Source: Pseudomonadota bacterium (GTDB taxonomy: Bacteria; Pseudomonadota; Gammaproteobacteria; DASZBR01). Taken from it: a DNA stretch of 64,000 nt. The first letter of the stretch is position 1. Each line of letters begins with the position of its first letter. Of the stretch, positions 24,001 to 42,000 are shown piece by piece. Location of the stretch: contig JAJYDF010000001.1 of the NCBI GenBank assembly GCA_021777765.1, positions 13,151-77,150 of the forward strand, given 5' to 3'. The position numbers are program-made.

Positions 24001-27000
24001 ACGTTGCTCAATTTCTTGTAATCGTTGGGGATTAAGTTCAAGTCTATCGACATAATGATTTAATTCGGTGATTGATTCTTGTGTTTGTATAATGGCGGCA
24101 TCTAATAATTCACTACAAGAAGAAATTTTATGATCAATGTTTTTTAACGCAGCTAATGCATTCTGTGCTTGTTTTAATAATTGTATGGCATTACTTTCCT
24201 CTTGATCAGTTAACGAAGTTAAAGCAGCCTGGCAGTGATGAATTAATTGATCCATATTAGCTAATTGTTTATGTTCTTTATCGAGTTGTTCTAATTCTTT
24301 TTCAGATAAATTTAATTGCGATAATTCTTGCACTTGAAAACGTAAAAATTCACTGCGAGTAGCTTGATCGCGACTGCGTGATTGTAAATCGGTATAATTT
24401 TGTGAAAGAGTGCGCCATTGTTGATAAATTGTTTGTAATTGAGAAATTAATTGTTGATGGCCAGCAAAATCATCTAATAACTGTCTTTGTACGTCCCGTT
24501 TTAATAAAGAATGGTGTTCGTGTTGACCATGAATATCGACTAATAAATCGCCTAATTCTCTTACTAATTGGAGTGGTACAGGTTGACCATTAATATAACA
24601 TCGAGAGGGGCTATCACTATTTATAACGCGTCTTAATATGCATTCATTATCATTATCTAATTCATGTTCTGCTAACCAATTTTGAACATATTTTAATGCA
24701 GTGATATCAAATGTGGCTGAAATATCGCAACGCTGTGTGCCATGGCGTATTACTTTGTTATCTGCACGGCCACCCAGTGTTAATGATAATGCATCAATTA
24801 AAATCGATTTTCCTGCGCCGGTTTCTCCCGTTAGCACAGTCATGCCTTTGCTAAAATCGATTGCTATTTGATCAATAATGGTAAAATTTTGAATGTGGAT
24901 GTGATTTAACATGTTAAGTTCTTTTCAATTAAAAATTATGTTCCCAGTGTAATTTAGATCTTAATGTTTCAAAATAATTGTAATCGATTGGATGAATTAA
25001 GCGAAGCTGATTTGTTTTTTTATTAATATAAATATTACTACCTGGAACAATCGCAGTGCTTTCACGGCCATCACAACTTAATCGTGGTGCTATTTTGCTC
25101 TCGGAAGGGATGGCAATTTTAATAGTACTATTGCCATTGACTACCAATGGTCGGCTCGTCAAATTATGAGAAAACATCGGTACTAACACCACTGCATCTA
25201 ATTGAGGATGTAAGATCGGGCCACCACCTGAAAGCGCATAAGCGGTAGAACCTGTTGGTGTAGCAATAATCAAACCATCTGCGCGTTGTGGGCATACAAA
25301 TTGATCATTAATAAAAATTTCAAAACGGATTAAATGCGCAATTTCACCGGGCATGAGCACAATATCATTTAAAGCAAATTCTTGATGAGTAATCTGACCA
25401 TCTTGTTCTAATTCTGCATTCAGTAAGAATCGCGGATCTTCAATGTATTTACCTTCTAAGATGTTACCCAGTTTATGAATTAAGTCAGTAGGCGTTATGT
25501 CTGCCAAGAAACCTAATGTACCTTTATTGATCCCTAATATGGGTTTTTGATGATCAGCAACCAGTCTTGTTGCGCGTAAAATACTGCCATCACCACCGAC
25601 CACAATAATGAGGTCGCAGTGTGCACCTAAATCTTCTCCCGGAAAAATTGAAATGGAATCATCTGCTATTTCATTGGCGATAACATCTTCAACAAATAGT
25701 TGGCATTTTTTTGATAATAAATAGTGTTTGAGTGACAGTAATGTATCAATTATTTCACTGTTAGGATTTGGTTTAGACATTAAACCAATATTTTTAAAAT
25801 GTAACGGCATAATAGCTTCCTGGTCGCATTGGCGTATTGAAATCTGATTAAACAGATGAATGCAGTGTGTCATACAACACACTGCATTATTATGCAGAAG
25901 CTATCAAGCTATCACAATATGGTGTTTCGCTAATTACTTCTATAGCGATTGCGGGGTAATACAACCAAATCATTAATCACATTTTGTACGCCTTGCGTAG
26001 TGACAGCGATTTGTTGTGCTTCTTTAACTTGCGCGCGAGAGCTGACAAAGCCACTCATTTGTACTACACCATTCTGTGTTTCCACATGAATATTAGGCGC
26101 GGAAGTGATATCACTTTGTAATAATTTCGCTTTGATAGTGGTGGTAATAGCTGCATCATTTGCATATTGTGGTGGCGTGCTTTTGCCTTGAATAATTGCG
26201 CATCCTTGTATTGCTACAAAGAGAAAGCATATCACTGCCAAATTTAGAGTATTTTTCGCTAACATATTTATATCTCCTCTTTAGATGAATTGATGATTTC
26301 ATATTAATAACTATCCATTTAATAGCTTTGATTGAAATCAATATTTAAATTTTGATTTCGATCAAAGTTATCCCAGACTATTTTCAATACGATGATTATC
26401 CTTGTTGAAAAATTTAATATTGATATGGATAGTTGGACTGATTTTAGAAGGGGGACATAACTATGGAAAAAATTAATTTAATAGATATCTATGAAAGATT
26501 ATTACCTCGTAATCGATGGTGGAACAATTGGCAAGAACTTAAAGATGAATTGCAATATCAATGGGATTTGTTAACAGGTGAAGATTTAGAAAAAATAAAA
26601 AATAAAAATGAAATTATTATAAATATTCTTCAGCAGCGTTATGGGTTTAATGATGAGCAGGCGAGAAAGGCGGTAAATAATTTTTTTAAATTTCAGCGTT
26701 GTAATATTCAATTAGAATGACGCAGTAGGAGGGAGTGAGCGCGAATAATTAAGCTCACTCCGTATTAATGATGTTATTCCTGCAGTTCCAATTCTTCTTT
26801 ATGCTTATGTTTGGCTTTACCACCTTTCGATCCCATCTTTCTAAACGCATCTGGATCATTTGCTTTTCGTGTTGCTGCTGCTTTTCTCGCGATATCTGAT
26901 TTGCTCATTACTGGCTTATTCTCAAGAAGTAATTTGTTATCGTTAGGGGCAAGCATATAGAGTTTAGGAATAGGATCAAAAGGGTGTGGGTTAGGATCCG

Positions 27001-39000: not shown

Positions 39001-42000
39001 AGTGATCAACTTTATTTTGAGAATTTTCAATATGCGCATCCGCATTATAGCCACTTGCATTACGAATATAATTTTGAAATTCAACGGAATATTTTCCAAG
39101 GTCATGCCACAATCCTGCAAGAGCAGCCCAATCCCCATTGCCAAAAGTGTCTGCAAATTTCTTGGATAATTTTGCAACGGCATTTAAATGATCTATCAGC
39201 AAATGCTCATGCCAATGTCCTTTTTCATCCTTATAAACATGCGCAATAGAATTATGAATATCCATATATTTCCTGAAATACAAAACGTTTTATTTGTTTA
39301 TTTTTTTGATATTTTGAAATAAAGATTAGTAGGGAATCTGTGAATGGTCAAAAGAGCTGTAATTAAGCCAAGATGAATTATTTTTTACTCATTAGCAATC
39401 TATCCAACTGAGTGCTAAAGTGTTATATAATATTTTTTTTGATAAATCCGATTAATTACTAACATTCAGTTTGAAGTCAATGATAGACAAAGACAAAACG
39501 CTTAATGAGCGAGCACAACATCTATTTAAATGTCTTGTAGAACGTTATATTCGTGACGGTCAGCCGGTTGGCTCGCGCACGCTCTCTGATGAAATGGGAT
39601 TATGTTTAAGTTCGGCAACAATACGAAATGTATTGGCTGATTTAGAAGAGCAGGGCTATCTACGTTCATTGCATACTTCATCGGGGCGTGTTCCCACTGC
39701 ACGCGGTTACCGATTTTTTGTGGATTCTTTGCTCACGGTGCAACCATTACAAGAAGAAATGGTGCAACAGTTTCAGCAGCAATTAGATCCTGATCTAAAT
39801 GTACCCAGTTTGGTTAATTCAGCGTCGACTTTATTGTCGCGTATTACGCATTTGGCGGGATTAGTTACCGTCCCAAGACATGAGCGAGTCATCGTGCGGC
39901 ATATGGAATTTTTACCTTTATCTGGTAATCGGGTGTTAGTCATTTTGGTGCTCAATGAGCGGGAAGTGCAAAATCGAATTATTTATACGGATCGTTCCTA
40001 TTCGCAAAGTGAATTACAGCAGGCAGCCAATTATTTAAATTCTAATTTTGCGGGGTTGGATTTAACGCACGCGAGACAAAAAATATTATCCAGTATGGCC
40101 GCTGATAGAGACTCAGTGAATGCATTTATGCAGACAGCACTGGATGTTGCGAGCAAAGGTCTTAATATCAATGCAACGAGCAATCCTGATGACTATGTAA
40201 TGGCTGGACAAGCTAATTTAATTGGTATGGCTGAAGAATCTGGCGTAGAAAGTTTACGATCATTGTTTGAGGCTTTTACTCAAAAACAAGTTATTCTGGG
40301 ATTATTGGATCACTGTTTAAATGCGGAAGGTGTGCAATTATATATCGGTGAAGAATCAGGTTATCAGGCGTTGGATGATTGTAGTTTAGTAACTGCACCT
40401 TACTCTGTGTCGGGTGAAGTGGTTGGTGTATTGGCAGTGATTGGTCCGACACGTATGGCGTATGACAAAGTTATTCCCGTTGTAGATTTAACGGCAAAAT
40501 TATTGAGTGCGGCCTTGAATCGATCGTAAGAATCCCCATCTTATTTTCCTTCCACCCTTCGGTGCGATAGTGCTGAAGACGGATTAGGGGGTATTAAAAA
40601 GATTTACGCAATTATTTAAATCGTCCTCGTCCGCCTTCGGCACCTTCTCCCGCAAGCGGGAGAAGGAAAATCAACTATTTTTTTAGCGGAGTACAAGCAT
40701 GACAAAGAAGCAAGATTGGTTATATGAAGACGACGATATGATGGGAGAGCCTGAAAAAGAAGCTGAACAAGACTCTTCACAAAAAGACGCGCAAAAAAAA
40801 GAGACTAAAGCAGCGAGTGAAGAACACAAAGAATTAGATTTAACAAGCCGACAAGATTTAGAAGAAGAATTAAATAAAATGGAAAAGTTGGTGGATGAAT
40901 ATAAAGAAAAATATTTACATGCAAAAGCTGAAACTGACACAGTACGTCGTCGCTCCTATGAACAGATTGATAAAGAAAAAAAATATGCTGTGAGTAAATT
41001 ACTTGAAGAATTAATACCAATTCTTGATAGCTTTACTCAAAGCGTTGCCACCGTACAAGATACCGATCATGAAATGGTTACCAGCATGCGTGAAGGTATG
41101 GTGCTGACTCTGCAAATGTTATTGAAAGCACTGGCAAAATTTGGCGTTAAAGAAATTAATCCTGGTGACAATGAATTATTTAATCCCACCTTTCATGAAG
41201 TGATGATGGCACAAGAAAATAATAGTGTTGCGCCAAATACCATTTTATCGGTATTACAAAAAGGGTATCAGCTCCATGATCGAGTTATTCGTCCTGCACG
41301 TGTTATTGTTGCAAGAGCGACGAATTAATTAATTCAAATGCGGAGTTGAAAAAATCTGGCTAGTCCCCATGTTGATATTAGGTAATTATTTATTCGTTAT
41401 CTTCATCCCAATAGAAAACAAGAAAAGTTGTTGAGTTATTTGGGGAGAAACTAATAAATAGTTAAATGTAATTAAATTGTAAACGTTATTTATAGATTTT
41501 TTTGGAGAAAGCAAACAATGGCTCAAATAATTGGTATAGACCTTGGAACAACGAATTCCTGTGTTGCCGTAATGGAAGGTGACAAAGTTAAAGTAATTGA
41601 AAACAGCGAAGGTATGCGTACTACGCCTTCGATTGTTGCCTATACGGAAGATGGTGAAATTTTGTGTGGACAAGCTGCAAAACGTCAAGCAGTGACAAAT
41701 CCTAAACGCACCCTTTTTGCGATTAAACGATTAATTGGCCGTAAGTTCACAGATGATGTTGTGCAAAAAGATATTAAAATGGTGCCTTATGAAATTATGT
41801 CTGCTGATAACGGCGATGCTTGGGTGAGAGTGGGCAATGAAAAATTAGCGCCACCACAAATTTCTGCACAAGTATTAATTAAGATGAAAAAAACTGCAGA
41901 AGATTATTTGGGGCACCCTGTTACTGAAGCAGTTATTACCGTTCCTGCTTATTTCAATGATTCACAACGTCAAGCTACTAAAGACGCAGGACGTATCGCT

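Follow-up and report, generated by a model that had tools for sequence, protein, structure and literature searches.

A composite, probably old islet at the nadK-hrcA junction of an uncultured gammaproteobacterium: a presumably relocated FNR-type cassette and a resident type I-C CRISPR-Cas locus

In Escherichia coli K-12, grpE is separated by a gap of only 122 bp from nadK-recN, and this junction, with grpE or hrcA on one side and nadK-recN on the other, is common from E. coli to Legionellales. The stretch of DNA considered here, referred to as the window, comprises 64,000 nucleotides of a gammaproteobacterial genome (lineage DASZBR01; assembly GCA_021777765.1, contig JAJYDF010000001.1, positions 13,151 to 77,150). 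As in Enterobacteria, nadK-recN is divergent from a grpE-containing heat-shock unit, here the hrcA-grpE-dnaK-dnaJ operon, and the operator CIRCE (controlling inverted repeat of chaperone expression) is located 5' of hrcA, as in other operons of this type. According to open reading frame (ORF) listing, translations and profile searches, however, the two units are ~13.5 kb apart in the window (25883-39470), a separation that is found in its clade alone. [quoted passage not shown] An islet bounded by core genes, devoid of an integrase and housing a resident CRISPR-Cas locus is of an already known kind and a case of ordinary genome plasticity; nothing in it challenges current understanding. Its value lies in providing a clean, dated case of a deeply conserved junction that appears to have been opened and filled in layers, with no visible mobile-element machinery.

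Among the described systems, the chromosomal CRISPR-Cas locus of type I-E in E. coli is the closest analogue of the whole: it is non-mobile, stays at one fixed site flanked by core genes and is passed on vertically, with sporadic degradation or loss, about 70% of genomes carrying it and about 30% having it in degraded form (2023, PMC10121019). The locus in the window differs in subtype (I-C) and in its flanks (an MFS transporter gene and hrcA), and the comparison made here is drawn between lineages of species rank or deeper within an uncultured Legionellales-type clade rather than inside a single species; moreover, the presumable loss in one relative, L002, takes the form of a clean 9.5-kb deletion and not of gradual degradation. 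The closest cas architecture is that of the type I-C system of Legionella pneumophila (2016, PMC5071653), a related intracellular-type gammaproteobacterium, with seven genes (cas1, cas2, cas3, cas4, cas5, cas7 and cas8c), an array downstream of cas2 and a repeat that likewise ends in ATTGAAAC after a hairpin. The repeats as such are dissimilar, that of Legionella being 32 nt long and GC-rich (GTCGCGCCCCGTGCGGGCGCGTGGATTGAAAC) and that of the window 37 nt long and AT-rich (GTTGCACTCATTTTAATTAATGAGTGAGGATTGAAAC), and whereas Legionella spacers match LME-1 (PMC5071653), those of the window are without a known target in phage, plasmid and IMG/VR searches. A close kinship to the Legionella Cas proteins is not demonstrated, the named Cas3 matches at 52-57% identity belonging to Nitrosomonas, Nitrosococcus, Nitrospinae, Parachlamydiaceae and others.

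The regulator of layer 1 shares with FNR of E. coli and Aliivibrio fischeri (PDB 5cvr/5e44) the Crp-family fold, the N-terminal C-x2-C-x5-C motif plus a central cysteine, the E--SR helix and TTGAT-N4-ATCAA boxes at target promoters, its own divergent promoter included. It differs from them in being a local regulator, with no global anaerobic role demonstrable for it, inside a cassette of 4-6 genes that encode small stress proteins (BON, CsbD), and in that a cassette of this type shifts its chromosomal position between lineages. As a site, finally, the interval resembles the integrase-less hotspots of horizontal gene transfer between core genes (Oliveira et al. 2017, cited in PMC10121019), as far as they are portrayed in the citing paper, in that the same two core genes bound variable content and neither an integrase nor a tRNA gene is found. 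It departs from this portrayal in its apparently low turnover and in that at least part of its content presumably consists of relocated native genes.

The ancestral state of the junction can be read from related genomes. Fetching loci by nadK alignment yielded 80, with one genome per species among the matches listed, on which the proteins of the window were placed by tblastn; 39 of them carry nadK plus hrcA or grpE, and only these enter the gap count. In 38 of the 39, nadK is divergent from and less than 1 kb off its neighbour, which is hrcA in 16 loci and grpE in 22, and the median gap is ~250 bp. The adjacency occurs in Coxiellaceae, Rickettsiella, Aquirickettsiella, Coxiella-like endosymbionts, 'Legionellales' and gammaproteobacterial metagenome-assembled genomes (MAGs); the best named relatives among the matches listed, from Coxiellaceae, Rickettsiella, Aquirickettsiella and 'Legionellales' MAGs, reach ~52-56% nadK identity. 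Neither grpE nor hrcA is found within 10 kb of nadK in 40 other loci (Marinobacter, Halopseudomonas, Hahella, Oceanospirillum and others). The nadK-hrcA/grpE adjacency is widespread, not universal, in Gammaproteobacteria. An initial annotation of the window, which regarded the recN-nadK and hrcA-grpE neighbourhood as normally contiguous, is borne out by the related loci and by E. coli K-12, and since the junction is contiguous in relatives, the interval in the window represents derived extra DNA.

Contigs at graded distances from the window were obtained through nadK homologues drawn from a collection of 15 billion proteins. A neighbour-joining tree of nadK+recN has the topology ((window,L002),(L003,L004)),L005,L006 with 100% bootstrap at every node, in which L002, L003, L004, L005 and L006 are contigs with nadK identities of 87%, 76%, 76%, 67% and 64% to the window, respectively; within the ingroup (window, L002, L003 and L004), nadK+recN protein divergence amounts to up to 21%. 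In the outgroups L005 and L006, nadK lies ~270 bp from hrcA and the interval is empty. Layer 1 is present in all four ingroup members and absent from both outgroups, and the distribution of CRISPR-Cas does not follow the tree: L002 reads nadK-BON-orf85-small ORF-FNR-CsbD-MFS-hrcA, without CRISPR-Cas; L003 reads nadK-orf85-small ORF-FNR-MFS-array-cas2-cas1-cas4-cas7-cas8c..., with BON and CsbD missing; and L004, the sister of L003, has retained BON. Altogether, the interval is observed in at least five states: (i) empty (L005, L006 and 36 others); (ii) layer 1 only (L002); (iii) layer 1 plus CRISPR-Cas (window); (iv) reduced layer 1 plus CRISPR-Cas (L003); and (v) occupied by unrelated ORFs (L033 and L083). 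The alignment across relatives that had been proposed with the initial annotation thus reveals an interval of differing content, in which close relatives share genes of core-like composition and deeper relatives lack them; the latter part agrees with accessory DNA at this site, the former does not.

The left core flank consists of recN (23242-24912, minus strand; Pfam SMC_N/AAA_23; 81-84% amino acid identity to recN of L002-L004) and nadK (24929-25810, minus strand; 293 aa, as in its homologues; Pfam NAD_kinase and NAD_kinase_C), which bounds the interval. A longer nadK ORF with its start at 25882 was rejected, as it overlaps the terminator hairpin of the BON gene and the homologues support the ATG at 25810. 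This terminator-like hairpin (25859-25888, minus strand; 13-bp stem), 3' of BON and just 5' of nadK, is conserved in the alignment with L002 and is the only element that was kept from promoter and terminator scans.

Six genes follow in layer 1: (i) a BON lipoprotein with a single BON domain, OsmY-like (25930-26265, minus strand; Pfam BON, E=4.8e-17; NCBIfam OsmY C-terminal half, E=4e-21), which is also present in L002, L004 and L092, a more distant relative; (ii) the 85-aa CsbD-like protein orf85 (26463-26720, plus strand), conserved in L002, L003, L004 and L092; (iii) a 103-aa lysine/glycine-rich small ORF (26774-27085, minus strand; 53% identity in L002 and L003); (iv) the FNR-type Crp-family regulator (27223-27954, minus strand; Pfam cNMP_binding and HTH_Crp_2); (v) a CsbD protein with a DUF883/ElaB-like C-terminal anchor (28088-28468, plus strand; 126 aa, the length called in relatives too); and (vi) a Bcr/CflA-family MFS efflux transporter (28523-29830, plus strand; TIGR00710, 234.6 bits, above the cut-off of 200.9), present in L002 and L003. 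ORF listing, translations and Pfam and NCBIfam searches thereby reproduce the gene inventory and coordinates of the initial annotation, with two refinements. Of the two CsbD-like proteins it listed, the one at 28088-28468 exceeds the Pfam cut-off (PF05532, 48.7 bits versus 40), while orf85 has no Pfam match and a sole NCBIfam match to PRK10428 (YjbJ/CsbD family, E=3.6e-9) under the model cut-off; and what it called a KGG protein does exist as an ORF and is 'KGG-like' by eye, yet it matches no Pfam or NCBIfam profile, the KGG repeat profile included, even at E<=5.

The regulator matches the NCBIfam Fnr subfamily NF008365 with E=1.9e-43 and aligns to A. fischeri FNR (PDB 5cvr) with E=1e-34. In this alignment, the equivalents of the [4Fe-4S] cysteines Cys20, Cys23, Cys29 and Cys122 are all conserved ('isCknCqfshlCi' vs 'ihCqdCsisqlCi', 'atfCmiP' vs 'smvCeiP'), as is the E--SR signature of the recognition helix ('yETvSRvL' vs 'vETiSRlL'). 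Boxes of the FNR type are located at the intergenic regions of the cassette. Two of the three perfect TTGAT-N4-ATCAA sites in the window form a tandem pair (TTGATTGAAATCAA and TTGATTTCGATCAA, 26328-26365) in the divergent region BON<>orf85, a layout that is also found in L002, L003, L004 and L092/L093. Single boxes with one mismatch lie 5' of the 103-aa ORF (27157-27170), with equivalents in L002 (6179) and L003 (6669), and in the divergent region FNR<>CsbD (27967-27980), where L002, L003 and L092 have a perfect box at the equivalent place. Overall, FNR boxes are enriched (20 found vs 10.8 expected) and positionally conserved in five relatives.

Layer 1 has the appearance of a compact, self-contained FNR-type regulon. 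The regulator would sense O2 or the redox state via its FNR-like [4Fe-4S] cysteine set and would act on the boxes before BON, the CsbD-like gene and the lysine/glycine-rich ORF, as well as on the divergent promoter common to CsbD-MFS and the regulator. By analogy with what is known of the families involved, stress proteins of the periplasm and membrane might be induced in response to O2 or the redox state. In a lineage that is uncultured and of intracellular type, this small putative FNR-type regulon (BON, CsbD, CsbD-like), whose operator boxes are conserved, may serve as a handle on the response to low oxygen or stress.

The cassette is not confined to the nadK-hrcA interval. In L092/L093, the arrangement CsbD<>FNR-orf85<>BON with equivalent boxes is situated between lipA/PAP2-type and pirin genes; the L092 regulator is 69% identical to that of the window, neither the 103-aa ORF nor the MFS pump belongs to the cassette there. 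More distant FNR homologues occur in two further contexts, namely CsbD<>FNR with an MFS gene and lexA-cho-FNR-hemerythrin-luxR. As the core of layer 1 resides at another locus in a distant relative, relocation is indicated rather than foreign import, and the core is presumably a native cassette of the wider lineage that was moved into the nadK-hrcA gap. The proposed course of events is as follows: The cassette core (CsbD<>FNR, CsbD-like<>BON) would have moved into the gap in an ancestor common to the clade of the window, and the lysine/glycine-rich ORF and the MFS pump would have joined it. BON and CsbD would later have been lost in L003.

In layer 2, the genes are ordered cas2-cas1-cas4-cas7-cas8c-cas5-cas3 (31630-39265/39283, minus strand), and all of them match full-length type I-C models above the NCBIfam cut-offs. 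The adaptation module consists of cas2, cas1 (Cas1c) and cas4 (31630-33583, minus strand; TIGR01573, TIGR03640 with 480.8 bits versus a cut-off of 385, and TIGR00372). It is followed by the Cascade genes cas7 (Csd2), cas8c (Csd1) and cas5c (33586-36898, minus strand), which match TIGR02589 (393.2 bits, cut-off 182), TIGR01863 (523.1 bits, cut-off 218.65, full length over 11-595) and TIGR01876 (198.6 bits, cut-off 85), respectively, and by cas3 (37061-39265, minus strand; 734 aa, as in its homologues), in which the HD nuclease (TIGR01596, residues 29-193) and the helicase (TIGR01587, residues 258-590) are fused. None of the seven operon genes matches a Cas6 model. The array (30324-31447, minus strand) comprises 15 identical 37-nt repeats, one degenerate terminal (distal) repeat and 15 spacers of 34-38 nt; the leader between cas2 and the first repeat (31448-31629, minus strand) is assigned by position and orientation and can be aligned with L003. 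On the minus (cas) strand, the repeat folds at -9.7 kcal/mol with an 8-bp stem and an 11-nt 3' tail, and a hairpin repeat with such a tail is the usual type I-C layout. In contigs assembled from short reads in Logan, the array is squeezed to one repeat (L001, 785 bp, 5196-5981, vs 1,800 bp in the window; L003, 3593-4243), an assembly artefact that renders the array length unreadable from such contigs.

The locus is hence complete and apparently functional. Spacers would be inserted by Cas1, Cas2 and Cas4 at the cas2-proximal leader, Cas5c would process the hairpin repeats and assemble with Cas8c and Cas7 into Cascade, and degradation of the target would fall to Cas3. The DNA from the MFS gene to the degenerate repeat includes a 438-bp non-coding stretch (29886-30323), for which L003 has no alignable counterpart and which may be a decayed, old part of the array. 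An ORF of 135 aa at 30086-30493 was discarded as a gene: it runs into the array, matches no family and has no same-strand counterpart in L003. A 24/37 match to the CRISPR repeat is seen at 29870-29906, 454 bp past the degenerate terminal repeat, and represents the sole occurrence with <=13 mismatches outside the array in 128 kb.

The extent of layer 2 is delimited by L002, in whose alignment position 29885 of the window is joined to 39383 with 4 unaligned nt in between. The polymorphic segment (29886-39382, 9,497 bp) takes in the 438-bp stretch, the array with its leader, all seven cas genes and ~100 bp 5' of cas3. Short imperfect repeats mark both junctions, GATGACATCATTATTT on the left (29870-29906, plus strand; break after 29885) and GATGAATTATTTTTTA on the right (39372-39387, plus strand; break before 39383), and the L002 joint carries a single hybrid-looking copy of them. 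This 16-nt imperfect repeat was considered as an att site or target duplication and dismissed as too weak. The right break is 9 nt away from CIRCE (TTAGCAATC-N9-GAGTGCTAA, 39392-39418, plus strand; 1 mismatch to the consensus), the sole such site within the window (0.01 expected by chance), so that the control region of hrcA is untouched. Beyond it, hrcA (39471-40529, plus strand) opens the right core flank, the hrcA-grpE-dnaK-dnaJ heat-shock operon (39471-44711, plus strand; Pfam HrcA, translations and synteny in relatives). The divergent promoter gap may be a permissive site, as DNA inserted between the promoter of nadK and that of CIRCE/hrcA would spare both operons and their operators, and gain and loss would most economically be explained by ordinary recombination rather than site-specific integration.

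The age of layer 2 can be gauged from two further lineages. The repeat of L003 has 2 mismatches to that of the window, and the DNA identity between both is 77.4% over the leader, cas2, cas1, cas4, cas7 and part of cas8c, compared with 77.5% for the nadK-recN core. In L094, a third and more divergent lineage (82% amino acid identity in HrcA, 64% in Cas3), the order is hrcA<>cas3-cas5-cas8c-cas7. Because cas divergence equals core divergence and the placement is identical in three lineages, the favoured course is a single old acquisition followed by vertical descent, with the locus deleted in L002, and the absence of CRISPR-Cas from this sister lineage would most simply be a deletion rather than the trace of repeated gain elsewhere. 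Outside the clade, Cas3 homologues form a cloud at 52-57% identity from many phyla, Burkholderiales among them, and the contig L096 (1-9615) carries a related type I-C operon (Cas3 60%, Cas5 57%) whose neighbours are a KfrA_N and a Sel1 protein; a Cas8c scan of JGI metagenome contigs yielded no confirmed relative. The operon of L096, a contig from the same study as L003, is possibly plasmid-borne. The many phyla in the Cas3 cloud and the relative in L096 point to an ultimately horizontal origin, which is usual for type I-C systems. The locus would thus first have been acquired from a widely exchanged I-C pool, then inherited vertically beside hrcA and deleted in L002, indicating that a CRISPR-Cas locus can reside stably and be handed down by vertical descent, with an occasional deletion.

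Several points weigh against the interval being an old islet of relocated and resident parts. None of the 15 spacers matches GenBank phages or PLSDB plasmids by blastn, and the three leader-proximal spacers, searched as exact 28-mers, have no match in IMG/VR, so that there is no direct sign of CRISPR activity in these searches. The regulator stays under the curated cut-off of the Fnr subfamily (148.6 vs 228 bits) and is therefore best named FNR-type, not an Fnr orthologue, and promoter-like sites in the window are fewer than in shuffles and were left unused as evidence. L092 is placed only by its similar divergence (69% for FNR vs 67% for nadK of L005), and the presumed direction of relocation follows from the outgroup argument. 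The close relatives are short metagenomic contigs, of which L004 and L094 span part of the interval and L003 ends before cas3 and hrcA. Finally, a gain followed by loss in L002 and two separate gains require two events each on the four-taxon tree, and the loss is preferred solely on account of the equal cas and core divergence and of the third lineage L094.

This last tie leaves room for the alternative that survives best, namely that CRISPR-Cas was never present in L002 and came into the gap between MFS and hrcA separately, or through recombination among relatives, in the lineages of the window, L003 and L094, which would make the gap a recurrent insertion hotspot. The L002 joint is indeed clean, with no cas or repeat remnant, and the KfrA-containing, possibly plasmid context of the type I-C operon in L096 suggests that there are mobile copies in the same habitats. 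Had the locus been gained independently from outside donors, identities unrelated to core identity would be expected, whereas those of the window and L003 coincide with it; leader and repeat are conserved between them, and orientation and position are identical. In L094, moreover, the same placement recurs and cas divergence scales with that of hrcA, which renders recurrent insertion rather unlikely.

The vicinity of the heat-shock operon suggests another explanation, in which the stress genes and CRISPR-Cas came to lie beside hrcA because selection favoured their sharing regulation or location with the heat-shock regulon, as a functional 'stress supercluster'. Stress genes abound in the window (cbpA-like dnaJ, hsp20, clpB, recN, hrcA-grpE-dnaK-dnaJ and ftsH), and CIRCE is located as close as 9 nt to the CRISPR-Cas junction and ~125 nt to the start of cas3. 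In L094, by contrast, the spacer between hrcA and cas3 measures ~990 bp and is filled with tandem repeats; the stress cassette has its own FNR boxes and is far from hrcA in L092; and neither CIRCE nor another shared operator is found inside the island. Co-regulation of this kind is therefore very improbable. A broader version, in which selection built the supercluster from cbpA-like dnaJ, hsp20, clpB, recN, the FNR-controlled BON/CsbD cassette, CRISPR-Cas and the hrcA operon, and the position of the cas promoter abutting CIRCE is not neutral, fares only slightly better and is likewise hardly to be expected; if true, it would couple adaptive immunity to an HrcA heat-shock or host-entry response. 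Such a coupling is weakened by the 990-bp spacer of L094 and by the independence of the cassette from hrcA in L092. The density of stress and chaperone genes is unusual in its own right, with cbpA-like DnaJ, Hsp20, ClpB, RecN, HrcA-GrpE-DnaK-DnaJ and FtsH encoded within 36 kb (12016-13552, 19397-21979, 39471-44711 and 46391-48334). In the L094 spacer (1205-2192), a 33-35-nt unit (tattcttataatgacctaccattca...) adjoining CIRCE is repeated about four times in tandem.

Even less probable is that the interval represents one horizontally acquired, compositionally foreign 13.5-kb island in a recombination or integration hotspot by the heat-shock operon. It is absent from the outgroups and from 38 related lineages, CRISPR-Cas loci are commonly transferred and Cas3 relatives beyond the clade come from many phyla. 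The composition is nevertheless core-like: GC is 0.327 in layer 1 and 0.333 in CRISPR-Cas, compared with 0.338 and 0.349 in the left and right flanks; mean GC at third codon positions is 0.260 in layer 1 and 0.210 in the cas genes versus 0.242 in the other 41 ORFs, slightly lower for cas (Mann-Whitney p=0.026); and the Karlin codon bias of layer 1 (0.118, p=0.89) and of CRISPR-Cas (0.133, p=0.13) stays inside the resampling null. Only the position of the array stands out as a peak of tetranucleotide distance, so the foreign composition that had been suspected is not found in any of these four measures apart from the array. Nor is the AT-rich block distinctive, its 67% AT being matched by 66% in the whole window; it looks AT-rich only by comparison with the GC-richer chaperone genes, whose higher GC stems from first and second codon positions, and calls of this type made by eye are no evidence of foreign origin.

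Mobility is equally inconspicuous. There is no tRNA gene in the window and no Rfam family at gathering score, Pfam and NCBIfam detect no integrase, recombinase or transposase domain in any ORF of 25883-39470, and at the outer borders of the island no flanking repeats rise above background. The two halves are distributed differently, L002 possessing layer 1 only and L092 the layer 1 core elsewhere, and the interval is common to lineages whose core proteins diverge by up to 21%; the single ~13.5-kb insertion originally envisaged gives way to at least two nested modules with different histories. A different part of the window, ~52000-58400, looks compositionally more island-like than the nadK-hrcA interval, with the lowest GC (0.28-0.31) and an elevated tetranucleotide distance (0.22-0.26). 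Encoded there are an ATP-grasp protein, an EamA transporter, two orphans of 374 and 494 aa, a PTPS-like enzyme and an SDR.

An artefact of assembly or binning, for instance a MAG contig that is chimeric, conceivable for a metagenome-assembled source and in view of the visible collapse of the array to one repeat in Logan assemblies, can practically be discounted, since the same arrangement with identical junctions was recovered in independent assemblies and samples (Logan SRR13178630, ENA ERZ27236866 as a 164-kb contig, NCBI GCA_027437415.1 and SRR17201898), so that the window is not a chimera, and the diverged relatives reproduce the junctions MFS-array-cas2 (L003), cas3-hrcA (L094) and MFS-hrcA (L002).

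The role of the nadK-hrcA interval as a hotspot, which the initial annotation suggested, is only modestly supported. The same flanks do enclose different cargo across genomes, but outside the clade extra cargo occurs in only 2 of 39 other lineages (L033 and L083), and inside the clade most of the content stays the same. In L033 (7178-9941), two orphan, effector-like ORFs (597 and 296 aa) replace hrcA; in L083, an HlyD-ABC-permease transporter is inserted between hrcA and grpE and a 90-aa ORF between hrcA and nadK (4861-7949 and 9540-9812). The neighbouring recN-clpB interval (21980-23241 in the window, with clpB at 19397-21979, minus strand, to the left of recN) has the look of a hotspot with much faster turnover than nadK-hrcA, containing different genes in every relative examined: a cupin (22113-22607, plus strand) and a 90-aa ORF in the window; a 1027-aa RNase III-ankyrin-pentapeptide protein in L002 (10172-14119); AAA_14/DUF4143 and an ankyrin protein in L004 (4347-8081); MazE/PIN and a 723-aa ORF in L005 (11076-14334); and ORFs of 936 and 356 aa in L006 (from 3911).

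Some features of the window are separate from the interval. An HTH and S24-peptidase protein (59225-59863, plus strand) is of the LexA-like or phage-repressor type, with no prophage genes evident nearby. Two AAA_14/DUF4143 ATPase paralogues are arranged in tandem (2253-3389 and 3522-4724, minus strand); a related copy adjoins recN in L004 (4468-5622), where positions 4658-4815 match 3176-3018 of the window by blastn. Eukaryote-like candidate effectors comprise a 903-aa U-box protein (4757-7468, minus strand) and an 862-aa ankyrin/Sel1/TPR protein (14956-17544, plus strand), to which a Sel1 protein (60856-61359, minus strand) and a 533-aa orphan (17660-19261, plus strand) may be added as further candidates; they would fit an intracellular, Legionellales-type lifestyle.

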